Below are positions 711-22,215 of a stretch of 64,000 nucleotides of DNA, in pieces (the stretch's first letter is position 1; each line of letters opens with the position of its first letter). The position numbers and the translations under genes are program-made. The DNA lies in the IMG/VR virus record IMGVR_UViG_3300025030_000080, positions 12,088 to 76,087 of that record; one strand, written 5' to 3'. The DNA is from a virus. Under the pieces are notes generated by a model. The model ran no database searches. It saw only the letters and a list, made by a program, of their open reading frames with translations, and had not been told where the DNA came from.

Positions 711-1781
711 TTACTCTTGCTTGCTCATAGAAGCAACCATGATATGTTGAAACTTTTCAGAAGAAAATAAAAGGGACTTCTTAGTAGGAGATAAACGGAA
801 TTGACGAGTAATTCCAAGAATCTTTTTGAAAAAATCAGGTTGTACCTTAATTTGCATTCCTTCTTCGAAGAAATCCTTTTTCCATTCCACTCCATCAATA
901 ATCTCTCCAGCTTCCTTTCCTGCCCTAATTTCTAAATTCCCCTTTGAATAGGAAAGAAATACTCTGGACAAGGATTCCCAATTATCTCCTTCTCCACTAG
1001 CTAAAATTTTAGCTCTTTCCAACGGAGCTTCCATTCCTTTTGGAAACTCTAAAGGATCGGCTTTCATATCAAATTTCATAGATTCAAATAACCCCGTAAT
1101 CTTCTTGAAGGGGTAATCCCCTGCTAAAATGCGAGAACTATATATAGGACCACCTTCATTTGAGAAATGAACCCAAGCTTTTGATAAAGCCATAATTTCA
1201 AATACTGGTTCTAATTTTAAAAGTCCCTCCACTGTCTTGATAGGAAGAGTAAATGCGCTATTCACCGCTTCTAACATAGTATATACAGATACACGGTAGT
1301 TATCAGTAGAAACAGCTTTATTTTCAAAGAAATGAACTCCTGCGAGAGGCCCTAAAGCTGGTCCTGTTCCAGCCCCGAAGGAGCACAATTCTAATCCCAC
1401 TTGGAAATCTTTGGGGAGGTAAAACCATTCTAATCCGTCCGTTTGAACAGCCCAAGCCCTCTCAAGAGAACTAGTTATTTGTTCCTTTTGAAGAGGGTTC
1501 ATTTTGAGAGTAGTTCTTCCCCCCTTAATTTGAAACTTTCCCTCTTCTGTCAATTTCATATCTATTTCTTCAGCGTCCATTTTGGATAAAACTTTGTATA
1601 ATTCCTCTGCTCGTACTGCTGTTCGAATTTTTGTTTCTAATGGAAATGATACGCTGATATCTTCCTTGTACGAACGAACCCAATCTTCATCGAATAGGAT
1701 AAAATCCGATCCAATTGCACTAGACTTGTCAATTCCCATCATTACGGATTTAATGGCTAGTAATAATTCAGACTTTTTCAT
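711..1781 (-). CDS. dnaN: DNA polymerase sliding clamp, beta-clamp-like
   Basis: 356 aa, typical beta-clamp size; STDNYR matches the ATDxxRL motif; SRILAGDYP matches the SRLIxGxYP motif. Confidence 0.75.
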   Translation of the reverse strand: MKKSELLLAIKSVMMGIDKSSAIGSDFILFDEDWVRSYKEDISVSFPLETKIRTAVRAEELYKVLSKMDAEEIDMKLTEEGKFQIKGGRTTLKMNPLQKEQITSSLERAWAVQTDGLEWFYLPKDFQVGLELCSFGAGTGPALGPLAGVHFFENKAVSTDNYRVSVYTMLEAVNSAFTLPIKTVEGLLKLEPVFEIMALSKAWVHFSNEGGPIYSSRILAGDYPFKKITGLFESMKFDMKADPLEFPKGMEAPLERAKILASGEGDNWESLSRVFLSYSKGNLEIRAGKEAGEIIDGVEWKKDFFEEGMQIKVQPDFFKKILGITRQFRLSPTKKSLLFSSEKFQHIMVASMSKQE

Positions 1782-1999
1782 TTTTTTGCCTCCATTGATT
1801 TAGATTCTTCATTTATAAGACGATTTAAATACCATTGGGCTTTCTTTAAATCCTCTAATTTTTTCCCTTTATGAGGAGCACGACATAAATATTTTACGAC
1901 ATTGCCTCCAAGAAAATCTAATTTTTGATCTAATATAAAATCAATAACTTCAATTTTCCCAGTAGTATAATGAGATGGATGATTAATTTGATCTTTCAT
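1778..1999 (-). CDS. DUF3310 family protein (T7 gp1.7-like)
   Basis: INHPSHY..IEVID..GNVVKYLCRAPHKG..EDLKKAQWYL signature. Confidence 0.85.
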   Translation of the reverse strand: MKDQINHPSHYTTGKIEVIDFILDQKLDFLGGNVVKYLCRAPHKGKKLEDLKKAQWYLNRLINEESKSMEAKK

Positions 2000-2751
2000 T
2001 CTCCTTCTCCTCCTACAAAAATATCGTCAAAAACAATAAGAAACGTTTTCTTAAATCTTTCTAGCATAGGAATAGTAATCTCTCTCATTTGAGGATGAGC
2101 TTTCGAAGAAGTTCTCAAACGAAAGAAATGCCGCCATTCACGAATATTAAAGGTGATTACAATTTCCGTTTTCAAACTATTAGGAAGCACCGATCGAGCT
2201 TCTTGGGGATTAGCATTATGTTGAAGCAACTCCATATAAGAATTTTCAGCAGTTTGGCACGCTGTATACCAATGATAAAAACGAGTTCCTGAATTTAATG
2301 GTAAATTTTCTGCATGCATTTTTCCAATGGCAGCGTCCTTGGTATATCCTTTTAAAATAAGATCATTAAATGTTTCATAAGCTATTTGATACCAAATAGG
2401 CAGAATAACCGTTATTTCTTTACTATTTCCATAGTTACAATATCGGGTAGATTCTTGACTATAGCTTGCTATTCTATGACGAACTATTTCATGAGATACA
2501 CCACGATCACAAATTACTCTAACTGTTATTTTTTCATGCTCAAGAACCGATTCGTGCCCGTTTTTTATAATCATTTGAACAAATTTAGCCGCAGAATCAA
2601 TCGTTATTTTATCTTCTGATTTATAGCAAGTTCGTCCATACTTTTCTAATTTTGCGAGTAAATCATCTCCGTGATAATGATATTTTGTTTCATACCTTGG
2701 GCACTCTATTTCTTCATCTTCAAATTTCCACCAAGGAGAGATAATTTTCAT
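1996..2751 (-). CDS. thyX: FAD-dependent thymidylate synthase
   Basis: ThyX motif RHRIASYSQESTR, plus GHESVLEH, EARSVLP and AHPQMR. Confidence 0.95.
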   Translation of the reverse strand: MKIISPWWKFEDEEIECPRYETKYHYHGDDLLAKLEKYGRTCYKSEDKITIDSAAKFVQMIIKNGHESVLEHEKITVRVICDRGVSHEIVRHRIASYSQESTRYCNYGNSKEITVILPIWYQIAYETFNDLILKGYTKDAAIGKMHAENLPLNSGTRFYHWYTACQTAENSYMELLQHNANPQEARSVLPNSLKTEIVITFNIREWRHFFRLRTSSKAHPQMREITIPMLERFKKTFLIVFDDIFVGGEGE

Positions 2752-2752
2752 T

Positions 2753-3565
2753 TCAATCTCCTATTTTAACATAAGAATAAATTTCTCTTTTTTCCACAGG
2801 ACAAAGTTTATCTTTAAATATTCTCAAGCTTTCTATCCCCATAATTCCTCCATCATTAACTAATTTATTTTGATTCAAAATAACGGGGTCTGTATAAAAT
2901 AAATATCTTTGGTATTCATTCAAAAATTTAATATTTCTAGAAAATGAAAATCGGAAGTTAATATAAAAATAATTGGAATCCCAAATATTGATTCCAAGAA
3001 TATATCCATTTTTATCTACCAAAATTTTCCTATTATTTCCATTAAAAATATAATTAGTCATAACTTCATCATCATGAATTTCTTGATTTCCTTCTTTATT
3101 TTTTAACCATTCTATGAATAAATCTTTTAGTTGATTTTCATGATTATCATTCGCTTCAATATACTGCAAAGGGGAATTCCCATACCGTCCAGGAAATTTA
3201 CGGATATTCTTTCGGAAAACTTGAAATTTGTTTCCAGTTAGATCTAGGAAATGACGAGGGTTATAAATATGTTCTAATTCCAAAAATTCTTTTTTATAAT
3301 TAGAAGGCATAGACCAATTGGGAAAACTAGCCCATATATGAGTAGCCCAATTTTGGTAATCTCCGCTTATGCTATTTCCATTGGGGAGTAATTCCCCCGT
3401 ATTCATATTTATTGGGGGGAATAAAATCCATTCGTTGTGTTTCCAATAAATAAAATCACCCGTAATTTCCTCTTTAATTTTAGCTCTTTGAAAATATTCT
3501 TCAGAGCAGGGAAAAGTAGGAATTATCTTATATTTTTTTAACAATTCCAAATATTGGTTTTTCAA
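2753..3565 (-). CDS. DUF2156/MprF C-terminal-like GNAT-fold transferase (putatively aminoacyl-tRNA dependent)
   Basis: LDLTGNKFQVFRKNIRKF and C-terminal VNDGGIMGIESLRIFKDKLCP resemble the DUF2156 motifs L.G.KF..KRN..N.F and IN.E.DLG..GLR..K..Y.P. Confidence 0.55.
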   Translation of the reverse strand: MKNQYLELLKKYKIIPTFPCSEEYFQRAKIKEEITGDFIYWKHNEWILFPPINMNTGELLPNGNSISGDYQNWATHIWASFPNWSMPSNYKKEFLELEHIYNPRHFLDLTGNKFQVFRKNIRKFPGRYGNSPLQYIEANDNHENQLKDLFIEWLKNKEGNQEIHDDEVMTNYIFNGNNRKILVDKNGYILGINIWDSNYFYINFRFSFSRNIKFLNEYQRYLFYTDPVILNQNKLVNDGGIMGIESLRIFKDKLCPVEKREIYSYVKIGD

Positions 3566-4059: not shown

Positions 4060-4244
4060 ATGGTTCTTCTATATGTGAGTAAGAAATGATCTTCCATCCG
4101 TGCCCAACAAATGTGCATTTTATTCTTAAATAGAGCAACTTATACCACCACCATTGACGTTTCCACCAAATGCCCCCCACGTTGGATGGTACGGGATATA
4201 CGAAACACCAAAGCCCCCTATCTTTACAAATAGTCCAACTCATC

Positions 4245-4646: not shown

Positions 4647-4658
4647 TATTTTCCTTCT

Positions 4659-5138
4659 TTATAAAAGTGAATTTACTTTAGCATCTATAAATTTAATAGC
4701 TTGTTCTACAGTAAAAATTTCTTCGGCCTCATTAATAAAAATATCTATTTGAAATTCTACTTCTGCTTTTGTTATTAAACCAATAATATCTAAAGAATCT
4801 AATTTTAAATCTTCGATAAAATGATCTTTTCTATCTATTTTATCTAATGGCATACCAGATTGATCGGATATAATTTTAAAAAGACGATCTTCAACAGAAA
4901 TAGGTTCTATTTTCTTTCTTTTTTTCAAAATAGGATGGAGGTTTTCCTTAACTTTTTTATTTATGGGTAATAGTCCATCTCCTTTACATTTACTACAAAC
5001 TTTTGAATTTCCCCCATATATAAGGGACATCCAAGTTTTTTCTTTATTAGGCATTTTTCCAGAACCCTTACAAACTTTACAAAAGTCATATTCCGCTACT
5101 GGCATATAAATTTGGAAATGTTCCATAGTCATAGTCAT
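4659..5138 (-). CDS. DnaJ-type Zn-finger fused to acyl carrier protein domain
   Basis: CKVCKGSG and CSKCKGDG, then an ACP with DLKLDSLD (phosphopantetheine Ser) and EFQIDI..AEEIFTVEQAI. Confidence 0.8.
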   Translation of the reverse strand: MTMTMEHFQIYMPVAEYDFCKVCKGSGKMPNKEKTWMSLIYGGNSKVCSKCKGDGLLPINKKVKENLHPILKKRKKIEPISVEDRLFKIISDQSGMPLDKIDRKDHFIEDLKLDSLDIIGLITKAEVEFQIDIFINEAEEIFTVEQAIKFIDAKVNSLL

Positions 5139-5146
5139 TTATATTG

Positions 5147-5338: not shown

Positions 5339-5535
5339 TACTTGTCTCCCTCGGCCTCTCTCTTTTTCCTTTCTTCATCTCCAGGGAAATCCTTCGTCCA
5401 ATCTAACCCCCCTTTATTCATAAGTCCTGAGGAAGAGCCAGATTTAGAGGATTTTCCTCCTTTTGATGATTGGCTCTGTAACCGTTCGACTAATTTGCGA
5501 CTTATAGAACCAGTTTTTCTACTCTTGCCCCCCAT
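5338..5535 (-). CDS. small Ser/Gly/Lys-rich protein
   Basis: RBS AGGGGG; tiles between its neighbours. Confidence 0.55.
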   Translation of the reverse strand: MGGKSRKTGSISRKLVERLQSQSSKGGKSSKSGSSSGLMNKGGLDWTKDFPGDEERKKREAEGDK

Positions 5536-6487
5536 TTGATACCCCCTTTTTAAATTTTCTTCTCTCCCGGCCCTCTTTTACTTTAGCCCTAGATTTTGGA
5601 TCAGACCAAAGTTGTTTCATAGTTTTAGATAATTTTGATTTTGATTCTTCACTATTTTGTTTTCCAGTATTAGACTCTATGTTTTTTCTTCTATATTCTG
5701 GATTATTCCATTTTTCTTTTATAGATTGAGATAAGGACTTTAACATATTTGATCTCATTTCTGGATCAGCCCATTGATTTGTAGCAGATTCTGATGCTTT
5801 TCTACTAAATTCAGGATCAGATGCTATAGTATTTGCTCTATTTAAAACTCTTTTTGATCGAATATCAGGGTCTTCCCATTCTTTTTTCCTCAGAATAGAT
5901 CCAATTTGACGAGATTCTGGTGATCTCATAATTTCTAATATTTTGTCCTTAAATTTAGGGTTTTCCCACCTATCTTTAGTACTTTTAGACATTATAGCTT
6001 TTACTTCTGGGTTATCAAGTCCCTTTTTAATAGCATCTTTCATTCTATTTTTATATTCTGGATCTTCCCATAAATTTTTAACTGATTCAGATATTTGAGA
6101 TATAATTTCAGGATTATCTTTGTATCTATTTTTAGTTAATTCAGATAGCTTTACTTTAGATTCCTCCGACCATTTTATCCCCCTATTGGATTCTGCTATT
6201 TCCCGAATATTATACCCATTTTCTTGTTTATATGATTCATAGTAATCTAACCAAATTTGTTCTCTAGGAACTAATTGAGTTAAATCATAAACTAATTCTA
6301 TTACCATAAATACAAAAGATTCTTCCCCATATTTACAATAGGCAGATTGAATGTGTTGAGTATGTTCTCCTCTACGAAGTAACCATAAATGCCCCCTTTC
6401 CCATCTAATATATACATCTTCAGAAGATCCTATATACTTCTTCCCATTTATTCTATTAAGTATCATGTATACACCGGAAATTTTCAT
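5519..6487 (-). CDS. GIY-YIG homing endonuclease with NUMOD3-like helical repeats
   Basis: GVY..YIGSS..RW..H, REQ.WLD, GYN motifs; repeated W.DPE units; start moved to MKISGVY. Confidence 0.9.
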   Translation of the reverse strand: MKISGVYMILNRINGKKYIGSSEDVYIRWERGHLWLLRRGEHTQHIQSAYCKYGEESFVFMVIELVYDLTQLVPREQIWLDYYESYKQENGYNIREIAESNRGIKWSEESKVKLSELTKNRYKDNPEIISQISESVKNLWEDPEYKNRMKDAIKKGLDNPEVKAIMSKSTKDRWENPKFKDKILEIMRSPESRQIGSILRKKEWEDPDIRSKRVLNRANTIASDPEFSRKASESATNQWADPEMRSNMLKSLSQSIKEKWNNPEYRRKNIESNTGKQNSEESKSKLSKTMKQLWSDPKSRAKVKEGRERRKFKKGVSNGGQE

Positions 6488-7257
6488 TTTATTCTTCTCT
6501 TTAAAATAGGGGGGATTATTTTTTCTTTCTGTAAATCCAAAATCCCCCCGCAGTCGTCGAAAATACACCCCGCCACAACTGCTTGCATATTATTATGCAG
6601 TCCATCTATCATAAAATATTTACATCCTTCTGGAAAATAGATATTAATTTTATCATTGAAATTAAATAATGCTAAGAAATCTCCTGTTCTTATTCCAAGA
6701 GGAGAAATAGAATCTGGAAGAACATCTTCTGGTTCTGTTAAGCCGAGGCCCTCCATTTCTATTTTTCTTTCGAGCAGTATCAGAGATCCGGCGTAGATAT
6801 CTCGTTGAAGTATTTTTATTTCTCCCCCTCTAGTTACAAATTCAATATGCGATAAATTCTCGTCCAAAAGGTCTAACGAGGATTTATGAAAAGGGATCTT
6901 CCACTTCATTTTTTCTGTATCATAAAATTTATAAAATAACTCTTCTACTTCTTGAAAAGTTTGAGTAGGTATTCTACATTTTTTCTTACGGAGAAATTCT
7001 TCTCCTTTTTGAAGGAAAGTTATGCTATTTCCGTCTGCAGTAAAATTTGGGGAATCATAATCGCTTAGAAAAAAACGAATTGGTTCTGGAAATTCATTCT
7101 TAGTTGCCTCGAACCGAAGTATCATGGTTTTATCGCTGTTGAGAATATAAATAACATTTTCCCAACAGAATGCAGAGTTTTTTTGATTCCCTGATTGTTC
7201 CAAAGCAACTCCATATGAAAATATTCTTTCTACTTCTAATTCTCTCAAAATTGTCAC
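6484..7257 (-). CDS. hypothetical protein
   Basis: 257-aa tiling ORF. Confidence 0.65.
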   Translation of the reverse strand: MTILRELEVERIFSYGVALEQSGNQKNSAFCWENVIYILNSDKTMILRFEATKNEFPEPIRFFLSDYDSPNFTADGNSITFLQKGEEFLRKKKCRIPTQTFQEVEELFYKFYDTEKMKWKIPFHKSSLDLLDENLSHIEFVTRGGEIKILQRDIYAGSLILLERKIEMEGLGLTEPEDVLPDSISPLGIRTGDFLALFNFNDKINIYFPEGCKYFMIDGLHNNMQAVVAGCIFDDCGGILDLQKEKIIPPILKRRIK

Positions 7258-7601: not shown

Positions 7602-7641
7602 TATAAATACTTTTCTTCTAATTCATTTCTGAGTCCCAAAT

Positions 7642-9124: not shown

Positions 9125-9829
9125 TTACAATGCTTCAAAATTTAAGTTTCTTTTATTTCTAGCTTTTGCTTTTCCTTCAACGGATTTGGCAATATGTTCC
9201 GGACTAAGATGTCTTCCAATAAGGGAAGCAGATAAATTGGCTAAATATTTTGGGTTATTGCTTCTCCTTATAAACCCTTCCGCCATTTTAGCTCTAAATT
9301 TTGGATCTGCCCATTGTTTTTTAGCAACAACTGACTGATTTTTTCTAAAATTAGGATCTTTTCCCCTTTCTTGATTCATTTCTAATATTTTTATTTTATG
9401 TTCAGGACTTTTCTTTCTGCCTTTCAAAAGAGAAATTACTTTATTTCTATATTCTGGATCTAACCAATGATCTTTACTAGTTTGAGAAATTATTTTCTTA
9501 ACTTCTTCTGAATGTTTATTTCCTAAACAAGAATTAGCATATCTACAAACATTATACCCATATCTATCGTCATATGATTGGTAGTAATCTAACCAAGTTT
9601 GCTCTCTGAAAGATAATTGAGACAAATCTTTTACTATTTCCATTATTATAAATTCAAAATTTTCTTCTCTATATTTATGATAAGCCCTTTGAAAATAAAG
9701 AGAATGGTGAGTTCCTTTACGAAGTTCGCATAAATGATTAGTCCACCTACTATATAAATTTACAGCAGATCCGACATATCTTTTTTCATTAATTTTATTA
9801 ACTATCATATAAATACCTGATACTTTCAT
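9125..9829 (-). CDS. GIY-YIG homing endonuclease with NUMOD3
   Basis: GIY..YVGSA..RW..H, REQ.WLD, GYN, KHSEE. Confidence 0.92.
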   Translation of the reverse strand: MKVSGIYMIVNKINEKRYVGSAVNLYSRWTNHLCELRKGTHHSLYFQRAYHKYREENFEFIIMEIVKDLSQLSFREQTWLDYYQSYDDRYGYNVCRYANSCLGNKHSEEVKKIISQTSKDHWLDPEYRNKVISLLKGRKKSPEHKIKILEMNQERGKDPNFRKNQSVVAKKQWADPKFRAKMAEGFIRRSNNPKYLANLSASLIGRHLSPEHIAKSVEGKAKARNKRNLNFEAL

Positions 9830-10478
9830 TCACCGTACCAAATTTTCCAACATTTCTAGACGGAAATCGGAACTTTCAATATATCTCCAAATTATGTTTT
9901 CCTCTCGATCTCTTCCATATGGTTCCATTCCTTGGGCCCAATCCGGAAAATAAGCCGGATTGCTCATTCTTAAATTCCACGAGTTCTTAACTTCTTTCAT
10001 CAAAGTTTCTGATAACCACCCTCCACGTTCCTCTACGAAAGTGTTATATTCTCCCCACGTTACGGGTCGGGGGGCGTTGTTTCGAACAAACCTAGCTGCA
10101 ATCATATTGTTTCCGTAGGAGAATCCTCCACCTAAAGGAAGATAGATGTCAGATATAGAACAGCAAATATCGTCGTCATTGATAGGAGAGTTGCCAAAAT
10201 CAAAAGTGGATGAAGAGAATCCCTGATTTTTCATTAATTTCATAAATTCCCCTAAGACTAGGGAACCTAGCCACTGACTATCTGACATTATAAGAAACAT
10301 TCGATGGAAATCTATCCCTAACATTTCCATTTGGCGCTTTACTCCGGGGGCGGAAGCGGAATAACTATATGTATCGAAAGTAATGTGCTTGATTCCAATT
10401 TCCTTTACTCTACTGATCCATTCTTCCACTGCATCTTTTTCATCGTTTACGAAAATCATTAAGGGTTCGATCCTAGCC

Positions 10479-10500
10479 ACCACCCTAACACCACCCTAAC
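10479..10500. repeat. 11-bp tandem duplication (ACCACCCTAAC x2) causing a frameshift
   Basis: read directly at 10479-10489 and 10490-10500. Confidence 0.95.
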
Positions 10501-10971
10501 CCCTGCATCTACAAGAGCTTTTGCAGCAAGTAAGCGTTGGGAGAAGGAAGGTGCCCCAGGCTCTAACTTTTTATTTAAAGCATCATCAGAAGATATCATA
10601 GTCATATGGACAGCAGAACCGGCCTTATTATCTGCCAAAGCTCTAACGTAGTCTTCTCTACCGATTAACGCTGATTTTGTGTTCACCATAATAGGATAAA
10701 CTTGATCTGATAAATAACGCATGAAATTCAAACTAATTCCTTTTTGCGCTTCGATAGGAAGAAAATCTTCAAATCGAATTCCTAGACGGATGGGAATTTG
10801 AAGACTTATTGCTTTTGGTAATTCTGGTCCATCAATCTTTTGGCCTCGAAATTTCATTAATTTATCCATCTCCGTTCGGAAGTATTCCGGTCGGCAATGG
10901 CGTATTCCAATTTCTTTGGGATTATCAAAAAATGATGTATATAATGATGATCGGAATGAATCTGCAAAACA

Positions 10972-11394
10972 ATTGTGAACTAAAATCCCCTCCGCGAAAT
11001 AATTATTATTGGGCACGCATTCAAAATTATAAACTATTTTTTTATTGCTAGTTTTTGCTCTATATATAGATTCAATTCTTCTCCATGCCCATTTATTAGA
11101 ATTATTGGGGGGATAAAAAACAATCATATCATGAATACTTAATTGTCCAGCATCTATCCATCCTCTACTAGTAAATACAGGATGTTCTAAAGTAAGTTTT
11201 AAAATTTTTTCTTTTATTTTGATAACTATCAAATCTTCTGCGGTTCGACTCATTATTTTTGTAACTACTGACTTTTCTGATTCTAAGTGAGTTCTGTAAG
11301 TTTTTAATGAAACTACCAAATCTCCTTCTTTGATATCCTTAATATTCTTTTTCTTTCCGCCCCACATTTGTATTTTAGTTAATGGCGGCAGACA
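10972..11394 (-). mobile_element. 141-aa mini-intein without endonuclease, inside the CxxxCxxC motif
   Basis: starts CLPPLT, block B TLEHP, block F VYNFEC..NYFAEG, ends VHN followed by Cys +1. Confidence 0.92.
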
Positions 11395-11688
11395 ATATTT
11401 GCACTGGTAACTGCAAGATAGGGCATCGTAAGTATCTGAATTTAAAGGAAGTGGACAATGAGCGGCTCTTAATGAAACTTCAATAAATGAAGTAATTTCC
11501 TCTTTATTTAGCATTCGCTGTTTAACTTCAAATTTTTCGCTATCGAATGAAAATTCGGAATAATTTACTTTACGGCCTTTCTCACGAACTAATCCTTTAT
11601 GCTTCTCCATTGATTCGAGTTGAGATCTACGAGGGATAATGGTTTTGACTATTTCGCGCAACTCCCAGTAATCTTTAAATATAGTCAT

Positions 11689-12516: not shown

Positions 12517-13452
12517 TCATCTCCCTAACCTATCTTTAAAATATTTTATAGTTTGTTCTAATCCGTCAGATAATGTAACTTTTGGTTCCCATTTTAATTT
12601 ATCTTTAGCCATAGTTATATCAGGTCTACGTCGAATGGGGTCATCTCCAGGCAATGGTTTATAAATTATCTCTGATTTTGATTTTGTTAATTTTATTATT
12701 ACTTGAGCCAACGTTTTTATATCTATTTCTATTGGATTACCTATATTTATAGGACCAGTAATATCATTGGTATTCATCATTTTTATAATACCTTCTATTG
12801 TATCATCTATAAAACAAAAAGAACGAGTTTGCCTTCCATCCCCATATATTGTGATAGGATCATTTTTTAAAGCTTGTAAAATAAAGTTAGATACCACTCT
12901 TCCATCTCCAGTGGCTAAATTAGGTCCATAAGTATTGAAAATTCTTACCACTTTGATAAAAAGTTTATGTTGTCTATAATAATCAAAGAATAAAGTTTCT
13001 GCACATCTTTTTCCTTCATCATAGCAAGATCGAATCCCTATAGGATTTACATTTCCCCAATAATCTTCATATTGAGGATGCCTCAAAGGATCTCCGTAAA
13101 CTTCCGATGTAGATGCTTGAAGTATTTTAGCTTTTGTTCGTTTTGCTAATCCTAGCATATTTATTGCCCCATGAACTATTGTTTTAATAGTTTGAACAGG
13201 ATCTTTTTGATAATAAATAGGAGAAGCAGGGGCAGCAAGATTATAAATTTCATCTACTTCAACATATAATGGAAAAGTTATATCGTGCCTTAATAATTCA
13301 AAATTAGGATTTGATAAAAGAGGAAGAATATTTTCTTTGGTGGATGAATAAAAATTATCTACACAAAGAACTTCATTTCCTTCATTTAATAATCTTTTAC
13401 ATAAATGAGAACCAAGAAATCCTGCTCCTCCAGTTACTAATATTTTTTTCAA
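12517..13452 (-). CDS. uxs: UDP-glucuronate decarboxylase (UDP-xylose synthase-like, extended SDR)
   Basis: [58 protein letters not shown]. Confidence 0.92.
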
Positions 13453-14636
13453 AATAATAATCCTTTTTTTTCTTCAATAGCTCCTTCTTCTTTTCTTCCA
13501 TAAATATTCATTCCATTTTTATCTTTATCCAAAATTATAATTTCTGGACTATCCTTCAAAGAAAAATATTGTCCTTTTCCATTCCAAATTTCTTTCATTC
13601 TATCGTAAGCCTCTGGTTGTCTAAATGTTATTTCCTCCATATCATCCCAACAAACCGAACCTTTTTCCATTATTATTTTACAAGCATGTTGAAAGGTGAA
13701 TTCATAGGGAACGAATAACCCATCCACTCCGCAACAACTTTCACAAGAATTACTAAATGGAAAATTTACGAAATCAGGAGAAGAAGCGGGGACATTTTTA
13801 CTTCTCAAAATATCTCTAAATTGTTTTCCTACGGGGGTCCAATTTTCATCTAGATTCTTTTCCAAAAGTTTGACGTAATTGAATCCCCGGCTTTCAAATT
13901 CTTTTTGAGCTATTTTGTAATTTGAAGTCCGATAATTAAAGAAACTAACATGTTTAGCTCCGGTACGGGATGCCATCTCGGCGTACCCTTCCAACATGTC
14001 TTCCTTCGAATTGATTCCCACTAGGATTGGTTCCCAACGTACAGCGGTCCAAATCCCTAGGTTGTTTAAAGTCTTGACTAGGGACCATCTCATAGATGCA
14101 GGGGGATTCCCCGGTTCTAATTTGTAATTGAGGGTATCACTACCCCCCATAATAGATACAATAACAGCTACATTCATATCTTTTAATAAATCAAGGTACC
14201 TATGCATTCCAATATAATGACTTTTAGTTTCTATGATCATAGGAACTTTATATTCTTTGAATAATTTGAGAACGGGGACTACTACATTATCTCTCATATC
14301 CTCTAGGCAGAATACTTCTGATTTACTTCCCATATTGAAAGGGAGTCCTCTACGAAGGCATTGAACGTGCCAATCTGTATATTGTTTATCAGAACCATAG
14401 GCTTTATCAAAAAGTTTCTTAAAATCTTCTGGATTACAAGCTCTGACTAAATCTCTTGACCATCCTTCGTAGTACCGTGTGTAAAGTCCTTCTTCCATTT
14501 CTCTACAAAAACAAAAATGACATGGAAAACTGCAGCCAGCAAAAATATCACCTCCAAATGCTTGGGGGCATACGAGGGAATCATTTCTAAATCCAACTAT
14601 AGACCCAAATTTTAGTTCTCTAATATCTTTTTTCAA
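13449..14636 (-). CDS. SPL-like radical SAM enzyme (paralogue of 9830..11688)
   Basis: [25 protein letters not shown]; C-terminal GLLF. Confidence 0.85.
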
Positions 14637-15034: not shown

Positions 15035-15069
15035 TTATTGATTCTCCTTAATCCTAGTATTTTCTTTCA

Positions 15070-15918
15070 TCAATACCCCACAGGAAGTTCAAATGGTGTA
15101 ATTAAATCTTCGGGTATTTCAATATCATCGAATTGAGGAATATTGGCAGATGATTTTCGTATATATTCCAAATATCCCACTCTACTTGGATCAATATCTA
15201 ATATTTTGGTAGCAGCTACGTCCATAACGTACATATCTTTTGTTGAAATTAAAATATTAGCTGGTTTAGGAATTCCGCATTGTTCCGAATATTCTGATCC
15301 TACGATACCATCTAAAACACAAGCAGCAACTCTATCTTTAATAAGAAAATATAAGTCATGAAGTCTTTTATGAAGAATATCACAACTTCCACGTGGGTGC
15401 ATACTACCTTTTTGGGCCATCATGCCCATACAATTTTTGATAGATATCGTAGTTCCCGACATATTATGAACTTTCAATTTAGGAACATTTATGACGAAAT
15501 CGCATTCCAACATAGTATTAGAAAATTTGGCCCCGAATAAGGATAAATATCCATCCCTACGGTAAAGGGTAAACTCATGAAACCGGGGTCCTTCCTGAAG
15601 TCCTATTAATTGTACTCCATATTTTTTAGATAATTGGTCATAACCAGACAATTTAATTGTATGCTCAAATTGGTCTTTAAATCCACAATCTCCTACTATT
15701 ATATCATTAGCCCCTTCTCTTATCAAATATTCTATAACTAGAGAAACAACTTCAACTCTGGTAGTAGATGCTATATCCCATCGGGTGGGAGGACATACGA
15801 GGTTGGGTTTAATGAAAACTTTTTTACCACTACAATCTGGAAAGTATTTCCAAAATTCTTGGGATATATTTTCTAATTTTAAATTTGCGTAATCAGATTC
15901 TCTATGAAATTGGATCAA
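15070..15918 (-). CDS. DUF362 family protein (Fe-S associated)
   Basis: KKVFIKPNLV, INVPKLKVH..G.T.SIKN.MG, LDGIVG, D...ILD. Confidence 0.85.
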   Translation of the reverse strand: MIQFHRESDYANLKLENISQEFWKYFPDCSGKKVFIKPNLVCPPTRWDIASTTRVEVVSLVIEYLIREGANDIIVGDCGFKDQFEHTIKLSGYDQLSKKYGVQLIGLQEGPRFHEFTLYRRDGYLSLFGAKFSNTMLECDFVINVPKLKVHNMSGTTISIKNCMGMMAQKGSMHPRGSCDILHKRLHDLYFLIKDRVAACVLDGIVGSEYSEQCGIPKPANILISTKDMYVMDVAATKILDIDPSRVGYLEYIRKSSANIPQFDDIEIPEDLITPFELPVGY

Positions 15919-15940
15919 TTACTACTCCCTTTTAAAAATA

Positions 15941-16044
15941 TGGTGGTGGTGAGGGGATTACCACTTATTTCGGTCTTATCACCGAACACTGTTAAGTACC
16001 CCCGTCAAGGTTCCTCCGGGACATTCGTCCAAGAGCACCACCCC
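15941..16044 (-). ncRNA. candidate structured RNA with tRNA-like acceptor stem and 3' ACCA
   Basis: GGTGGTG/CACCACC+ACCA; internal hairpins GGAC-GAAT-GTCC and TTCGGT-GATAAG-ACCGAA; GC-rich intergenic. Confidence 0.4.
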
Positions 16045-16055
16045 AAGATTATATT

Positions 16056-16778
16056 TCAGTTAACGGTGAACGATCCATTTGCTACTGTAATAATTTCCAT
16101 CTTGCTGAGCAACGACACTCCGCATTTGGCTACTGCAGCGGATTCCTTAATATTACTTTTCCCTCCCTGATCTGCGTAAGACTGATCAGCAGCATTAACC
16201 AACTCCTCTAAAGTCCCCGTTTTCAACGAGAGAAGAGTATCCGCCAAAACTGTCCAACGACTAAATGACTTGGGAGCCGGGGGAACACGCTTGATTCTTT
16301 CTTTCTCCGGTTTTGGAGCTTTAGGAGCAGCCGGAGTTTTAGCGACAGTAGGAGCCGTGGGAGCAGGAGTTGCTGCTGTAGGAGTGGCAACGGGGGCTAC
16401 GGGAGCGGCGGGGGCAGGGGTAGCTGCAGAACGCCCAACACGACGGGCTACGGGAGGGGGCGGGGGAGCAGGAGGTTCGGGTTCAGGTTCCGGTTCAGGT
16501 TCCGGCTCAGGAGTGATCGGAGCTTCCTCCACCGGAGTTTCCGGAGTTGATTCTTCCTGATCTAACCCCAACGTGGTAATAATATCGTTGTACATGTTGA
16601 TAATATTTGCGTTCGATGACCCCGGAGCATCCCCTTCGGCCTTTTCCACTGCATCGAGATATGCCGGGATCAGCATCTCCTTTGAAATCTTGTCGGCGTT
16701 GTTAATCCCAATTTCAGTAGCACAAGCAATGAGCTTTGAATGTACGATTTTCTTCAAAAGTTTCGGATCGAATTTCAT
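16056..16778 (-). CDS. putative DNA-binding protein with Pro/Ala/Glu linker and C-terminal winged-helix-like domain (family with 55320 and 63041)
   Basis: RBS GGAGG before MKFDPK; (PE)n and PAA linker; FSR..AD..Y..N.KE..V motif shared with the two paralogues. Confidence 0.65.
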   Translation of the reverse strand: MKFDPKLLKKIVHSKLIACATEIGINNADKISKEMLIPAYLDAVEKAEGDAPGSSNANIINMYNDIITTLGLDQEESTPETPVEEAPITPEPEPEPEPEPEPPAPPPPPVARRVGRSAATPAPAAPVAPVATPTAATPAPTAPTVAKTPAAPKAPKPEKERIKRVPPAPKSFSRWTVLADTLLSLKTGTLEELVNAADQSYADQGGKSNIKESAAVAKCGVSLLSKMEIITVANGSFTVN

Positions 16779-16890
16779 GTAGTTCTCCCTCCGTTCGGAA
16801 TTTGTAAGACAACTACAATCTTCTACAGGAATAGCCACTATCTGATACTTCATCTCACCCACCCCTTCTGGCTTGGTTTCCCGTGTACTT

Positions 16891-16918
16891 ATTACTACAG
16901 GAGCTAAGCCTAAATCAA
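16891..16918 (-). promoter_or_regulatory. putative phage promoter TTGATT-N12-CTGTAGTAAT
   Basis: conserved bipartite motif, intergenic. Confidence 0.55.
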
Positions 16919-16997
16919 TATTATTTTTTATGAACAATTATTATACCTTTTGATTGATTATTTTAAATTTCTTCCTTTTCATTATCTGATGGGTAAA

Positions 16998-18374
16998 TCA
17001 TAGTATATCTCCTCTGTCTGGTTGATACGGAGAATTTTCCTTAGTAATAATATCAGGGGTCCCCCTTCTGTCAATTCTTCCCTTACCTATCAAATAACGA
17101 GTTAATACTTCTGTGTAAGTATGGGAAGATCGTACATTTCCCGTAACAACTTTATCAATTCCCCATCTATTAATCAAAGAATCTATTACTTTTTCGCACC
17201 ATTCTCTGGCCCCTATTGGCATATTTAAACGTGGATGAAGTTCTCTAATTCTATCGTGAAGTCTATTAGCCCCTATAATAAAATCATTTTCTTCTTTTTG
17301 GTTAAACTCTCCACTCGCCCCTAATAAAATTTTATCACGATAAAATTCTTTTAACCATCTTGTATTTTCGGGGTTTTTCTCTTTTTCTTTTTTAACCATG
17401 AAAGTTACTGGTTCAGGTTCGTTTTCTAAACAATGTAAAAATTGACTTTTAATTGACGAGGCAAAACGATTGTAAAAGAAAGTACCTAACCCCAAATTTT
17501 TAAAAATTGATTTATTTACTGGTCGGTAATTCAGATTTGTAGCTATTAATTTATATTTATCTATCACCGAAATTATTTCTTCTTTTGAATAATTTTTATT
17601 ATTAGTTAAACCCTCTCCTATAAAAAGTTTTCCATCTAATACTTTTTCTATGATAGAAACTATATCTGTAAATGTTTTTGTTGGTTTGGCGTAGCCTTGA
17701 TTATTCCATGCCGGCATATGATGATGGGGTAAACCCGGCGAGGAATTCCAATAATTGATAATATCGAGAGTGTCTTTCCTATACCGTTGACGAGGGGTAA
17801 CTTCAAATTCTATAGATATAGATTTATTTCTTTTAATTAAAGACTGGGTTGAATTTAAGCCTAAATTATGAACGTCGGTTTCACCTGCTTTTGGTGAAAC
17901 CCCCGAATCTTTCGAGAGAAAAGATTCGTTAGAATCTTTTGGATCTAAAGATTCTGGTATAGGTTCAATAATTATAGGTTTACTTAAAGAGATTCCGCTT
18001 TGAACGGAATCCAGATTCCGCTTTGAACGGAATCCAGATTCCGCCCATTCTTGTATTTTATTACGATCAATTCTATACCAATTTTTGGCCGGTATCCCTT
18101 TTCGAGATACTTGAATAAAATTTAAATCTTGAAGTATTTTAGTGGAAGATGTTTGAACATCTTCGCTAAATCCAGTTCTATTTTTCAATAAACTTTGAAG
18201 CATATAAAAATACTCTCCGGGTTGTATTAATTCTTGTTTAATTAAGTAATTTTCCCAATCTATTAAGTCTCCTAAAATTATAGTAACGAAAGGACCTAAT
18301 TTTATTAATACGGAACGGTTACAAGCTATGAAATTTGCAAATGGAATTTGAGATATATTCCTATTATTTTCCAT
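16998..18374 (-). CDS. replication initiator / replisome organiser
   Basis: N-terminal winged helix ending RKGIPAKNWYRID; internal iterons; lies downstream of DnaB. Confidence 0.7.
   Translation of the reverse strand: MENNRNISQIPFANFIACNRSVLIKLGPFVTIILGDLIDWENYLIKQELIQPGEYFYMLQSLLKNRTGFSEDVQTSSTKILQDLNFIQVSRKGIPAKNWYRIDRNKIQEWAESGFRSKRNLDSVQSGISLSKPIIIEPIPESLDPKDSNESFLSKDSGVSPKAGETDVHNLGLNSTQSLIKRNKSISIEFEVTPRQRYRKDTLDIINYWNSSPGLPHHHMPAWNNQGYAKPTKTFTDIVSIIEKVLDGKLFIGEGLTNNKNYSKEEIISVIDKYKLIATNLNYRPVNKSIFKNLGLGTFFYNRFASSIKSQFLHCLENEPEPVTFMVKKEKEKNPENTRWLKEFYRDKILLGASGEFNQKEENDFIIGANRLHDRIRELHPRLNMPIGAREWCEKVIDSLINRWGIDKVVTGNVRSSHTYTEVLTRYLIGKGRIDRRGTPDIITKENSPYQPDRGDIL
17906..18044. repeat. 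iteron-like repeats inside the initiator gene (putative origin)
   Basis: AGATTCCGCTTTGAACGGAATCC x2 plus a partial copy (17990-18044), each palindromic; two GAATCTTT..AAAGATTC palindromes at 17906-17954. Confidence 0.75.
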
Positions 18375-18849
18375 TTTTATTCTCCTTAGCTATTTCCTCT
18401 TCACATTTCGATTCTAATTCCATAAATCGTATAAGCATTTCGTTACACGCTTGAACATTTATTTTGTAATAAATTTTATCGGTTTTTTTATCCCATATGA
18501 ATTTAAGTATATCAGAATTTTCTAATTCATTTAGTATTTCTACGAGTTTTTCTTTGCCTATGAAAAGTAACCTCCCCGTCGTTTCTAACGATATAAAAGG
18601 CAAATCCCCAAATTTATTTGGGTAATGTCTTTTTATTTCGAACCAATAGTTATGATCTTGATTTAATAAACTAACAAAAGCTCCTTTTTCCAAACCGTAA
18701 AAATAAACAAAACCCCTATCAATTGTTATAAGCCCCCCACCAGCTATTATATGATCGACATATAGCTTCGATTTTACAAATTTTTTACTTAATTCTCCCC
18801 CACCTTCACTCATTATTTTATATAATCTAATAGATTTTGTATCACTCAT
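18364..18849 (-). CDS. winged-helix protein, initiator-associated
   Basis: tiles between DnaB and the initiator; ends KIYYKIN, like the initiator N-terminal domain. Confidence 0.5.
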   Translation of the reverse strand: MSDTKSIRLYKIMSEGGGELSKKFVKSKLYVDHIIAGGGLITIDRGFVYFYGLEKGAFVSLLNQDHNYWFEIKRHYPNKFGDLPFISLETTGRLLFIGKEKLVEILNELENSDILKFIWDKKTDKIYYKINVQACNEMLIRFMELESKCEEEIAKENKNGK

Positions 18850-20407
18850 CTTTCTTTCCCCCTTTATTTCCATCATAAAATACAAATTCTGTATCAATAA
18901 TTGGCTGGCCCAATTCTAATTGTTGAAGCATCATCACTTGCCTTCGTTTGTTAAATCTTTTCCATCTATGCTCCAACACTCCAGTTCTCCATACTCCTTT
19001 TTCTTTTTCTTCAGGAGTTTGATCTAGAGACATCATTATATCTACATGAGCCAAAATATAAGCATTTACTCCGATATCACTTTCATCTTGTAAATCTTTG
19101 GTAAGGGCGGATCTTCCAGATCCTAACGATTGTGCTCCGGTTACTACTAACGCAGATCTGGATTGAGCCAATCGTTTATGAGCTTTAAATACATCGTCAA
19201 CATCATGACGAGGATCATTAAATTTACGTTCTGATAAAATGATTGAAGCGTAGTCGGTGATTATAACGTCGGGTATAAATCCTTCAATTCTTTCTAATTC
19301 ATCTAATTGATCTTCTACGTCCGACATTGTAGCGGAATAGGCAGGGAAGCTGATCATTCTGAGCAAGTCTTTACCGAACATTTTATTGAAACGTTTGATC
19401 TCTTTACGGGTATTAGGTAGGCTTAATTTAGGCCGATCTGCCACGAAGAACCACGTTGTAGCTAAGAAATTACCCCCTCCGGGTATCTTCCTACAGGCCG
19501 TACACGGTCGATACCTTCCGGGGGCTTTAGGGTCGAATTTAGGGGGGCGGGTTTCCCTATTCATACGTTCTAAATTATTGCAGGAATTATCTTGATTATT
19601 CAAACAATCAAAACTAGGATAAATATAACCTTGGTTTTCGTCTCCTTCTCCCATAACTCCTAATTCTTTATACATTCTGGTAGCTTGGTGCTTATCTTTC
19701 ATTTCGAAAGAAAGCATAGCTACCCTTTTTCTAGACATCATAGCATCGAATGCGAAATTTTCTAGAATCCAGGTTTTTCCACGTTTTGCAGGCCCCATTA
19801 CAGTTATTAACCATCCTCTATGAAGATCACCTAATAAATCTCCTAATTTACCTTTCATTCTAAATAGAGGAACTTCTTTTTCTTCAAAAACTGAATTTAA
19901 AAAATTAGGATCATCTAGTGGTTTAGACCATTTATAAGTGACTTCGTCAACTATCTTTTTTTTACTTTCATAGAATTTTTCAGCTTCTTCAGTTTTACCT
20001 ATATCTAATAGAGCAGTAATACCTTCTGCAGTCCTTCTTAAATGCTGAGTCTTTAAATATTCCTTGCCTTTATCGATAATAAAATCATCGTTTACTCCGT
20101 CGGGTCCTCCTTCTGATAAATATTCCTCTGATAACTTAGCCAGGAATAATTCAATTTCTTCGTCTAGTCCCTGTTTGAGTTTTCCTTTTTCTGTTTCGTA
20201 CAAATCTTTAATATGATTCTTTGGAGCAGATTTATATCGGTCAAAATAATCTAGAATCCATCGAACGATATTTTTGCTGACCTCTAGTTCGAATACGTTT
20301 GGATCAGCGAATGGAGCAAGATGTGTTATTACCTTGTCAGAAATGATCATTCCTGTAATGATACGTTTTTCTACTCCCTTATCAGAGCGGTGAATCCGTC
20401 TGAGCAT
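18842..20407 (-). CDS. dnaB: replicative DNA helicase, DnaB family
   Basis: Walker A GPAKRGKT, SFEM, IITDY, VTGAQ; Cys-rich insertion. Confidence 0.85.
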   Translation of the reverse strand: MLRRIHRSDKGVEKRIITGMIISDKVITHLAPFADPNVFELEVSKNIVRWILDYFDRYKSAPKNHIKDLYETEKGKLKQGLDEEIELFLAKLSEEYLSEGGPDGVNDDFIIDKGKEYLKTQHLRRTAEGITALLDIGKTEEAEKFYESKKKIVDEVTYKWSKPLDDPNFLNSVFEEKEVPLFRMKGKLGDLLGDLHRGWLITVMGPAKRGKTWILENFAFDAMMSRKRVAMLSFEMKDKHQATRMYKELGVMGEGDENQGYIYPSFDCLNNQDNSCNNLERMNRETRPPKFDPKAPGRYRPCTACRKIPGGGNFLATTWFFVADRPKLSLPNTRKEIKRFNKMFGKDLLRMISFPAYSATMSDVEDQLDELERIEGFIPDVIITDYASIILSERKFNDPRHDVDDVFKAHKRLAQSRSALVVTGAQSLGSGRSALTKDLQDESDIGVNAYILAHVDIMMSLDQTPEEKEKGVWRTGVLEHRWKRFNKRRQVMMLQQLELGQPIIDTEFVFYDGNKGGKKDE

Positions 20408-20411
20408 AAAG

Positions 20412-20657
20412 CTATTTCTTGACGGCGTTCAGATTTAAGGAAAATCCTTCAGCGCCAAGAATGGGAATAAATCCTCCAGTACTGGCGATTATGTTAGTTT
20501 TCCCCGATTGAGATTTACCAAAATCTTGTTTTAAATCTACTTCAATGATGGGGATATTATCATTTTGTACTTCCATTATTATGTTTTTAATTTTAATTTT
20601 ATTTTGATTCTCTAATTCTGCTATTCTTTCTTTAAGTTTCTGAATATCTTCGGTCAT
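20412..20657 (-). CDS. small conserved protein
   Basis: DL..DFG.S.SGKT.IIASTGG motif. Confidence 0.6.
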   Translation of the reverse strand: MTEDIQKLKERIAELENQNKIKIKNIIMEVQNDNIPIIEVDLKQDFGKSQSGKTNIIASTGGFIPILGAEGFSLNLNAVKK

Positions 20658-21352
20658 TTTTGATCTCCTTTTGGTTGGAAGGGTTGGATTAAACTAGGAT
20701 CTCTTATGATATTCCAATGATTTCCTGCTCCCCAAAGTAATAGCTGAGGGGAGAATACTATACGCTCGGTCCTTTTCCAAGTAAACCACAAAATTGCTTG
20801 TAATTGATTCGGAAGTAATTTATGTTTTCTAGCTACTTTGAAAAATACTTCGGCCATTTCGTCGTATCTTTTTGGGGAAGATACTAATTTCAACTCTGCT
20901 ACTTCTTTCATACGGTATCGTCTACCAGAATAAATGGAACACATATGCCCATCAAGTGTAATATATTTAGGGTCTTTGGGCAGCAAAATATTTAAGTAAA
21001 AATTTCTAGTTTTTGGTCCTGAAGTTTCTGCTAGGAAATCCTTATTTCCGATTAGGAATTCAATTGCTCTACTTTTACATTGATTATAAGTAGAAACTAT
21101 AATTTTATTTGGAGGGATTTTATTTTTAATACCGATCATAATACTGACGAGGGACCGGATATTACCCATATAATCATTGTTGGGGGATAATGCAACGAAT
21201 GCGGCTACTGTTGGGCAGAATCCGAATCCATGATAATTTGCTACATTTTTTAACATTTCATTATATCTATGGTAGGCTACTTTTCCTTCTTCTTTGTCGA
21301 TGGAATCTGATAAAGAGTAAACTTTTTCTATGTTGATTGTTTTAGATTTCAA
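20654..21352 (-). CDS. HhH DNA-glycosylase-fold protein (DUF7178-like)
   Basis: VALSPNN..GN, GPKTRNFY.NI, TLDGHM, QLQAILW. Confidence 0.6.
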   Translation of the reverse strand: MKSKTINIEKVYSLSDSIDKEEGKVAYHRYNEMLKNVANYHGFGFCPTVAAFVALSPNNDYMGNIRSLVSIMIGIKNKIPPNKIIVSTYNQCKSRAIEFLIGNKDFLAETSGPKTRNFYLNILLPKDPKYITLDGHMCSIYSGRRYRMKEVAELKLVSSPKRYDEMAEVFFKVARKHKLLPNQLQAILWFTWKRTERIVFSPQLLLWGAGNHWNIIRDPSLIQPFQPKGDQK

Positions 21353-22215
21353 AAGAAAAGCCCTGCTAATTCTTTCTTTATGTTTTTTTCTATCTTTAAA
21401 ATTGCATTATTTTGTTTTATCAACGATTTGATAATAGCGGGTCTAGCCCAATTTCTTTGGAATTTGGACCATTCTTTGTTTTTATCTCCTTTTTCATTTT
21501 TATATAACATACCCATTGGTAAAAACCCTGCCTTGACCGTTTTAAATAGCCTATTTTCTGCTTTTTGTATAGTATCGTTAGGAAATCCTATTAAAACAAA
21601 ACATCTGAGTTGATTGAAAGTAAACCCTGCTTCTTTCAGCATGCTCCCCGCTTTGATTAAAGATTCATATTTTTCCTCCGTATCGTATGCAAAGAATATT
21701 TGAGAAGGATTGGCTTTTATGAGTAGATCTACTATCCATGGTTTTAATTTAGTTGCTTCTAATCCTCCAGTAAATTCTGGTCGATGATTTTGGCGTGAAA
21801 GCATTAAAAAGACATTTCTAATATGATTTTCTGAGCAAGCTAATAGGTTATCATCTAGTATATTCCAACCATCTTTTATTTCTAATTCCCTGATATTTCC
21901 TTCTCTTTTCCAAACAGAACAAAACCAACATTTATTTGGGCATCCTCTAGATGTAATGACATATCCTAATTTTAAATATTTACCAGGGATAAATTCTTCC
22001 CCTTTATTTCCTAATGCAGGACCACCAATATTTATAGGAGCAACATCTTTCCAACTTTTTTCTAAAATTTCTATTAATTTTAGGTCCCAAGTAAAAGTAA
22101 AGGATATCTCCACTTTTTTTATTTCTGGTAATAGTAACCCAGGTGGTCCGAAGAATGCCAAGGAATCATCTGGGGATGCTTTAGTTTTTCTAGGGAATAC
22201 TCTTGCTATAGTCAT
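21349..22215 (-). CDS. radical SAM enzyme
   Basis: TSRGCPNKCWFC, LDDNLLA, FVLIGF; degenerate B12-binding-like N-terminus (IGGPA); C-terminal GLFF. Confidence 0.88.
   Translation of the reverse strand: MTIARVFPRKTKASPDDSLAFFGPPGLLLPEIKKVEISFTFTWDLKLIEILEKSWKDVAPINIGGPALGNKGEEFIPGKYLKLGYVITSRGCPNKCWFCSVWKREGNIRELEIKDGWNILDDNLLACSENHIRNVFLMLSRQNHRPEFTGGLEATKLKPWIVDLLIKANPSQIFFAYDTEEKYESLIKAGSMLKEAGFTFNQLRCFVLIGFPNDTIQKAENRLFKTVKAGFLPMGMLYKNEKGDKNKEWSKFQRNWARPAIIKSLIKQNNAILKIEKNIKKELAGLFF

Follow-up and report, generated by a model that had tools for sequence, protein, structure and literature searches.

A conserved phage gene block with two radical SAM proteins, an aminoacyl-transferase fold and a second clamp fold: a possible DNA-modification module

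Among the replication genes of the virus record IMGVR_UViG_3300025030_000080 (IMG/VR) lies a group of genes for radical S-adenosylmethionine (SAM) proteins and other enzymes, and the question raised by this locus is whether they form one pathway and, if so, on what substrate it acts. The stretch analysed here (the window) comprises 64,000 nucleotides, bases 12088-76087 of the 76,087-bp linear record, which is estimated to be 76% complete. An earlier note, made from the sequence without database searches, had listed three radical SAM genes, a DUF7178 gene read as an HhH-glycosylase fold, DUF362, UDP-glucuronate decarboxylase (UDP-xylose synthase, UXS), an acyl carrier protein (ACP) fusion and a DUF2156-like GNAT, all co-oriented with ThyX, DUF3310 and a clamp, as one cluster for an unknown DNA modification. 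Comparison with relatives divides this list: part of it forms a conserved unit embedded in replication genes, and the rest is variable, with UXS, ACP, ThyX, DUF7178 and the third radical SAM gene (rSAM3) lying outside the module. Our preferred reading, which we hold tentatively, is that the conserved block is a functional module at or just behind the replication fork that installs an amino-acid-derived base modification on phage DNA.

The block consists, in order, of DUF362, the two radical SAM genes rSAM1 and rSAM2, a gene for a PCNA/9-1-1-like clamp (p6484), a gene for a DUF2156-fold transferase (p2753) and the beta clamp gene (Table 1). Scans of IMG/VR and of Joint Genome Institute (JGI) metagenomes yielded 34 distinct loci, in which gene order was read with home-made hidden Markov models. 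A single invariant order was found across the distinct loci with enough flank, where DUF362 was present in 17/18, rSAM2 in 16/16, p6484 in 13/14, the DUF2156-fold gene in 12/13 and the beta clamp in 8/10. The missing members mostly reflect flank limits; at locus L006 the absence of the DUF2156-fold gene and the beta clamp is attributed to such limits because the whole genome of this sister phage (G001) has both. Carriers of the block span 37-57% GC, and its position is constant, between DnaB/primase and the beta clamp. Further, rSAM1 is 61-70% identical in relatives in which the identity of primase, DnaB and clamp falls to 23-34%. The co-occurrence in relatives on which the earlier note had staked its cluster is thus found for the six-gene block, whereas ThyX, ACP, rSAM3, UXS and DUF7178 do not travel with it. 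The five-gene clamp-associated module appears to be undescribed in the searchable literature.

A reduced form of the module occurs in a distant 57-kb phage with direct terminal repeats (G005, loci L046-L048). There rSAM1, rSAM2, an unassigned 238-aa gene and the DUF2156-fold gene occupy L048:1309-5781 and adjoin an RFC-type clamp loader, a match to an archaeo-eukaryotic-type primase and a weak match to a pyridoxal phosphate (PLP) enzyme (PALP), the last seen near the module in this phage only. Several proteins neighbouring the reduced module have acidic tails with the motif [IL][DE]LG[DE].

Three radical SAM genes had been predicted in the window, and all three are present at the positions given for them, each with a CxxxCxxC motif. 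By this cluster motif their products can be placed in the radical SAM superfamily; their matches to Pfam PF04055 (19-26 bits) lie below the gathering threshold (GA). The cluster cysteines of rSAM1 (C35, C39 and C42) are invariant in 25 sequences. As had been proposed, rSAM1 and rSAM2 are paralogues; they fall in the PA0069/Rv2578c (COG1533, 'SplB-like') group, and these two families are their best named sequence relatives (E ~1e-11), with scores an order of magnitude under the cut-offs. No spore photoproduct lyase (SPL) model in NCBIfam matched rSAM1 or rSAM2 at E <= 0.01, and the rSAM1 profile matched no PDB chain, SPL 4FHE included, at E <= 1. The pair is accordingly tied to SPL no more closely than through the wider PA0069/Rv2578c/'DNA repair photolyase' group. 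Single-sequence and profile searches of PDB sequences returned nothing for rSAM1, DUF362 or DUF7178.

Close homologues of rSAM1 form at least 88 clusters, all metagenome-derived, for which the JGI name is 'DNA repair photolyase'. In a full profile search for the wider family, 1,698 representative clusters passed E <= 1e-3 and 56 passed 1e-30. Among 78 distant relatives, PA0069 was matched by 75, Rv2578c by 73 and TIGR04470, 'radical SAM mobile pair protein B', by 46. The name of this last family and its partner (TIGR04470/TIGR04471) denotes two radical SAM genes together on mobile DNA, and our literature search found no paper on the 'radical SAM mobile pair'. A tblastn search with rSAM1 against cultured phages gave no match. 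Similarly, a pattern-limited profile scan of 185,579 species genomes, which is not proof of absence, found no cellular relatives of the rSAM1 clade.

As assembled, rSAM2 reads as two open reading frames (ORFs) through an 11-bp tandem duplication, GTTAGGGTGGT, at 10479-10489. These 11 nucleotides are missing at full depth in contigs of four sequencing runs, of which two came from samples that had not been flagged as possible sources, and the apparent frameshift is therefore an assembly artefact or a rare variant; the alternative that rSAM2 is a pseudogene or split gene was rejected on the same ground. Without the duplication rSAM2 is a single ORF of 615 aa, or 474 aa once spliced, as a mini-intein of 141 aa (~10969-11391) lies inside the cluster motif at CSYQCKY/C...HN/C, where slashes mark the junctions. 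An intein-free allele, an exact skip of 423 nt, was recovered from one groundwater run (X15); other small-side joints were disregarded as unreliable. The rSAM2 orthologues of other phages, 461-492 aa long, are each encoded by one ORF and have no intein. In the sister phage G001, rSAM1 is interrupted by an intein (L006:8492-8935 + 9827-11071), an insertion larger than that in the window, and rSAM2 is also interrupted by a larger insertion (L006:15072-15623 + 16758-18458). Intein-containing forms are known in the Rv2578c family as well (NF038136). Inteins favour conserved sites of important genes; here they occupy the Fe-S motif of two block members, rSAM2 of this phage and rSAM1 of G001.

The DUF2156-like GNAT of the earlier note gained support from structure prediction, although by sequence p2753 stays below threshold (Pfam DUF2156 25.3 bits, GA 27.5). 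Its orthologue in the distant phage G005 scores 40.6 bits, above GA and over its full length. An AlphaFold model built on nine orthologues (predicted local distance difference test, pLDDT, 84; predicted template modelling score, pTM, 0.83) matched the DUF2156 structure 2HQY in Foldseek with a template modelling (TM) score of 0.69 (prob 1.0), and L-PGS and MprF with scores of 0.58-0.66; further structural matches were A-PGS, the aminoacyl-tRNA-dependent peptide synthase Sbb17 and FemX. The characterised top matches are all aminoacyl-tRNA-dependent transferases, and the predicted structure confirms for p2753 the fold of this class of aminoacyl transferases, which it has in common with the MprF C-domain, 2HQY, FemX and Sbb17. 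At 270 aa it has no membrane domain; unlike MprF, it lacks the membrane/flippase part and stands in a phage replication context. The identity of DUF362, the first gene of the block, agrees with the earlier reading, and this family belongs to the same clan as the N-domain of LarA (PMC11770544).

Modelling of p6484, which the earlier note had recommended, predicts a two-domain sliding clamp subunit. The AlphaFold2 (AF2) model (pLDDT 79, pTM 0.79) matched PCNA in a Foldseek search of the PDB (prob 1.0, E 2e-10), and VIA-align placed it with human Rad9 (Z 15.9) and yeast PCNA (Z 15.3), about 215 of 257 residues being aligned; it also matches viral clamps in BFVD. Identity to clamp structures is about 7-11%, and there is no Pfam match. 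The two-domain fold, known here from a predicted monomer, is common to PCNA, Rad9-Hus1-Rad1 and T4 gp45-type clamps. Unlike those clamps, p6484 coexists with a canonical DnaN-type clamp, whose identity had been read correctly, and with a DnaX-type loader; given its predicted fold, the phage would hold a second clamp-fold protein.

The C-terminus of rSAM1 is of interest in this connection. Past a conserved NIYGR, nearly all full-length homologues continue with a linker, variable and basic, of about 12-15 residues and finish in a short run of hydrophobic residues (KKGLLF in the window; GLFW, GFGL, DLPTLF and DIKPLF in homologues). Beta-clamp and PCNA-interacting protein (PIP) motifs show that clamp-binding peptides share this architecture of a linker and a short hydrophobic terminus, and by analogy the rSAM1 tail resembles a clamp-binding motif. 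In addition, rSAM3 ends in ...AGLFF, and the peptide [FY]E[LR]P[LV][GA][WY] is common to the C-termini of the DUF362 orthologues.

Two known systems bear on what such a module might do. In Pseudomonas phage M6, gp53 is an SPL-like radical SAM isomerase of N-alpha-glycinyl-thymidine on DNA, in the pathway to 5-(2-aminoethyl)deoxyuridine (5-NedU), and SPL and gp53, both DNA-acting, are the only characterised relatives of the SplB-like radical SAM enzymes (PMC8989533). The rSAM1 profile aligned with gp53 (hhalign prob 80.7%, E 1.3e-5, 111 columns), and the two systems have in common a phage-encoded photoproduct-lyase-like radical SAM protein in a cluster near replication genes, which in M6 acts on DNA. 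The M6 pathway starts at 5-hydroxymethyldeoxyuridine (5-hmdU) and uses the P-loop kinase gp54, the aGPT-Pplase2 gp51 and the PLP enzyme gp52, none of which was found here; the present module, unlike that of M6, has two paralogous radical SAM proteins, a tRNA-transferase fold and a clamp. The other precedent is Mom of phage Mu, a GNAT that moves glycine from Gly-tRNA to N6 of adenine in double-stranded DNA (PMC13219725). Mom represents the GNAT superfamily with a charged-tRNA donor and a DNA acceptor, and p2753 is set beside it by fold only: Mom acts alone, whereas p2753 is a tandem GNAT found with two radical SAM proteins, DUF362 and a clamp.

The reading of the block as a DNA-modification module is drawn from these gp53 and Mom precedents, from the constant place of the block among replication genes, from the second clamp and the tails, and from the dark habitat, and DNA is the most likely target of the module. 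The gene identities, folds, synteny, co-occurrence, tail motif and rSAM2 integrity are the established ground, from which we infer the substrate and the sequence of steps, binding to a clamp and the existence of a modified base. In the scheme that we propose, the DUF2156-fold enzyme would move an aminoacyl group from a charged tRNA, the donor also used by MprF and FemX, to a DNA base or to a handle on the base, and rSAM1 and rSAM2, probably as a heteromer, would make or rearrange a carbon link by 5'-deoxyadenosyl radical chemistry. The extra clamp, the beta clamp or both may tether the enzymes on DNA through the short C-terminal tails, and DUF362 could have an auxiliary role. In its most specific form, which we regard as unlikely, this would be a hypermodification made from canonical bases, with no 5-hydroxymethyluracil (5-hmU) or 5-hydroxymethylcytosine (5-hmC) precursor, that relies on an MprF/FemX-type donor, a heteromeric radical SAM pair and a dedicated clamp and is widespread in uncultured phages of anoxic groundwater and metagenomes. 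Of the unknown modification suggested at the outset, what survives is that the components of the conserved unit point to DNA; the membership then proposed, with ThyX, ACP, rSAM3, UXS and DUF7178, fails.

Several observations weigh against a role in DNA modification. A modified base in the phage DNA is predicted from genes, and a Pfam scan of 58 distinct ORFs of the window and the upstream sequence detected no hydroxymethylase, 5-hmU kinase, aGPT-Pplase, tRNA-guanine transglycosylase (TGT)/Dpd or glycosyltransferase gene, an absence that is unproven in a record about 76% complete. The same 58 ORFs do not contain the classical thymidine hypermodification pathway, from 5-hmdU through 5-phosphomethyldeoxyuridine (5-PmdU) to an amino-acid adduct. 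No relationship of DUF7178 to M6 gp51 emerged (hhalign probability 0.3%). Against the PA0069 and Rv2578c models the radical SAM pair reaches 42.8 and 43.5 bits where the curated cut-offs are 360/430, and is thus related to these families without belonging to them, while the similarity of rSAM1 to gp53 spans just those 111 columns. To our knowledge, enzymes of the DUF2156 fold act on lipids, peptidoglycan precursors and antibiotics and have never been seen to act on DNA, and Mom is a single-domain GNAT that differs from the DUF2156 fold. The gene for the clamp fold may simply serve ordinary replication and be interleaved with the module. In the reduced module of G005, DUF362 was undetected, and hhalign of its profile against a 306-aa gene of that phage was not significant; the 238-aa gene at the clamp position also gave no significant hhalign match to the clamp-fold profile and is not recognisably related to it.

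The same genes can be read in other ways. A block adjoining the region of RecA/UvsX, UvsY, gp32 and a 5'-3' exonuclease might serve DNA repair or damage tolerance, the radical SAM pair reversing a base lesion (for example a thymine-thymine methylene bridge, or a radical or alkyl adduct) to which a 9-1-1-like checkpoint clamp recruits the enzymes, with the transferase and DUF362 as accessories. SPL, the founding member of the group, is a repair enzyme, 'DNA repair photolyase' is what JGI calls the homologues, and the top structural match of p6484 is a damage-checkpoint clamp, Rad9 (Z 15.9). The Rad9 and PCNA scores are, however, tied within 1 unit, so that a checkpoint-like identity is not established, and repair leaves no role for an enzyme of aminoacyl-tRNA-transferase fold that co-occurs in 12/13 loci. 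Because the runs holding the phage are all groundwater or soil metagenomes, where UV photoproducts are not expected, and the habitat is dark groundwater, repair of such photoproducts is unlikely to be the selective reason, and we judge the repair reading improbable. Still less probable, in our view, is that the module makes a non-canonical deoxynucleotide as a monomer, which the phage family A DNA polymerase (PolA) then incorporates. Many phage base replacements do arise at the nucleotide level, this PolA has an unusual N-terminal domain like that of uracil-DNA glycosylase (UDG), and ThyX is adjacent in this genome. ThyX nevertheless does not accompany the block in relatives, the ORFs that were scanned yielded no nucleotide kinase, dNTPase or dUTPase, and monomer chemistry needs neither a clamp nor clamp-binding-like tails.

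A non-DNA substrate, such as a lipid of the host membrane (aminoacyl-phosphatidylglycerol, the product of MprF), a cell-wall precursor, tRNA, a protein or a metabolite, would make the placement in the replication region a matter of co-expression and the clamp an ordinary one. It agrees with the known activities of DUF2156/Fem-fold enzymes, since all characterised ones modify lipids, peptidoglycan precursors or natural products, with the clan that DUF362 shares with the LarA small-molecule racemases, and with the match of distant rSAM1 relatives to 'radical SAM mobile pair protein B'. Other metabolic genes (UXS, ACP and ThyX) also lie in the same region of this genome, but they do not co-occur with the block. 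Moreover, p2753 is a soluble tandem GNAT without a membrane domain, and the fixed order with two clamps across 37-57% GC, together with the clamp-binding-like tail of rSAM1, is hard to explain on this basis, which leaves a non-DNA substrate a rather unlikely account that we take seriously.

Hypermodifications of phage DNA are a main counter-measure to restriction and CRISPR and a source of new nucleic-acid chemistry and enzymes. Among enzymes known to modify DNA, M6 gp53 is the only one of the radical SAM type and Mom the only one that depends on tRNA, and both come from cultured phages. If the DNA-modification reading is true, the block combines radical SAM and tRNA-dependent DNA chemistries with a dedicated clamp. 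With five genes in a fixed order and at least 88 rSAM1 clusters in metagenomes, the module is defined well enough for direct cloning and testing. Even if DNA is not the target, a conserved phage module pairing two SplB-like radical SAM proteins with a DUF2156-fold transferase is new, as is the presence of an extra clamp beside the beta clamp of the phage, and the module gives the DUF362 and PA0069/Rv2578c/'mobile pair' families their first functional context.

Table 1. Genes of the conserved block and neighbouring genes in the window, by position
Feature	Coordinates	Strand	Basis and remarks
DnaN-type beta sliding clamp	711..1781	-	Profile vs PDB beta clamps (DnaN), E 6e-17; last gene of block
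DUF3310 small protein	1778-1999	-	PF11753, E 3.9e-21
ThyX flavin-dependent thymidylate synthase	1996-2751	-	PF02511, E 3e-47
p2753, soluble tandem GNAT of predicted DUF2156 / MprF C-domain / FemX fold	2753..3565	-	AF2 and Foldseek
Zn-ribbon (2x CxxC) and acyl carrier protein fusion	4659-5138	-	PF00550; TIGR00517, E 2e-16
GIY-YIG homing endonuclease	5519..6568	-	Pfam GIY-YIG; mobile DNA inserted in block
p6484, predicted PCNA / Rad9-Hus1-Rad1-like two-domain clamp-fold protein	6484..7257	-	AF2 model, Foldseek, VIA-align
Second GIY-YIG homing endonuclease	9125-9829		Pfam GIY-YIG
rSAM2, rSAM1 paralogue, single gene	9830-11688	-	CSYQCKYC, restored by intein splicing
UDP-glucuronate decarboxylase (UXS)	12517-13452	-	E 1.4e-110 to human UXS1
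rSAM1, SplB/PA0069/Rv2578c-like radical SAM protein	13449-14636	-	CSFPCHFC; NCBIfam E 2e-11, far under cut-offs
DUF362 protein, LarA-clan domain	15070-15918	-	PF04015, E 2.9e-35; first gene of block
DUF7178 protein	20654-21352	-	PF23802, E 1e-22; 162 homologue clusters
rSAM3, small radical SAM protein	21349-22215	-	CPNKCWFC; Pfam 26.4 bits; phrog_9298

The genes outside the block are mostly what they had been taken for, and their distribution separates them from it. UXS matches human UXS1 (4GLL/2B69) over residues 2-309 with 373 bits and is a UXS, as previously identified; its gene is an insertion between rSAM1 and rSAM2 that among relatives occurs only in G001 and the sister contig G002. The ACP fusion is also what it was called, with a PP-binding domain (PF00550) at 27.3 bits, above the GA of 20.8, and the serine of the DSL motif in LDSLD. 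The Pfam matches agree with the names given to ThyX and DUF3310. No homologue of ThyX, the ACP fusion or rSAM3 was found in the five genomes G001-G005, even in relatives with about 80% amino-acid identity, and within this set UXS, DUF7178 and p14633 are confined to the closest clade. The rSAM3 family is virus-dominated, its members being about 280 aa long. The shared orientation of the listed genes is uninformative because, among the 46 window ORFs that reach 150 aa, 44 are on the - strand.

The gene order primase, rSAM3, DUF7178, small ORF, DnaB is as described in the earlier note, which had seen rSAM3 and DUF7178 as a radical SAM/HhH pair. The two are neighbours by chance: the closest relatives have primase and DUF7178 side by side, leaving no space for a radical SAM gene, and since rSAM3 and DUF7178 do not co-occur in relatives and DUF7178 is found alone elsewhere, we reject the pair as a unit. 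DUF7178, a widespread protein of phage replication modules, occurs alone in SIO1-like (SIO1 gp9), Lentibacter, cyanopodo-, Microbacterium and Streptomyces phages. The HhH-glycosylase fold assigned to it was not upheld either, as the HhH-GPD-like motif (GPKTR...IDGH) has no statistical support. A profile of 30 DUF7178 sequences matched no solved structure in the PDB, and hhalign against Escherichia coli Nth (endonuclease III) gave a probability of 0.1%, the sole local match placing VTIDGHM opposite IAVDTHIF, the catalytic-Asp segment. One GenBank phage record labels a DUF7178 homologue N-glycosylase/DNA lyase; our literature search found no paper mentioning DUF7178.

The window also contains a zone free of CA and TG dinucleotides, which had been linked to the modification as its possible effect. 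The zone exists: at window positions 61900-63524 there are CA/TG-free gaps of 482, 480, 168 and 168 bp, the two longest at about 62.4-63.5 kb, and 0-1 CA/TG is found per 500 bp where about 55-61 are expected. The zone is CG-rich, and an ORF on the + strand within it (63041-63445) has as its sole TG that of the start ATG. The sister contig G002 is collinear and ends within the corresponding stretch, which is poor in CA/TG. The link to the module does not hold, for G003, G004 (100% complete and carrying the block) and G005 have no CA/TG-free zone, which makes it a trait of a single clade that does not track the block.

The sequence is held by 15 runs from at least six studies, all groundwater metagenomes (two labelled soil), and no RNA run is among those listed as holding the region. 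GenBank phages gave no near-DNA match, and the PADLOC defence models gave no meaningful match. The 12 kb upstream of the window encode RecA/UvsX, a 5'-3' exonuclease, gp32, UvsY, a DnaX-type clamp loader (L003:5399-7372), in which an intein is present, and a family A DNA polymerase (L003:7420-11031, - strand), which has an intein and a fused N-terminal domain of the UDG superfamily. A structured RNA candidate at 15941-16053 (- strand; minimum free energy -44.4, z -3.0) has a 7-bp acceptor-like stem, GGUGGUG/CACCACC, followed by ACCA; we rejected this tRNA-like RNA as a part of the module, given that ARAGORN and Rfam make no call there and that the closest relative does not conserve it at the corresponding position. 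ARAGORN called three tRNAs elsewhere, Leu-CAA (17984-18063, within the ORF 16998-18374), Leu-TAA (33668-33754) and Met-CAT (38131-38205), of which the call at 33.7 kb is the sole one to reach the Rfam tRNA threshold. The same phage also encodes a classical protein-based anti-restriction function, an ArdC-like protein with ArdcN and zincin metallopeptidase domains (window 46635-47489, - strand).

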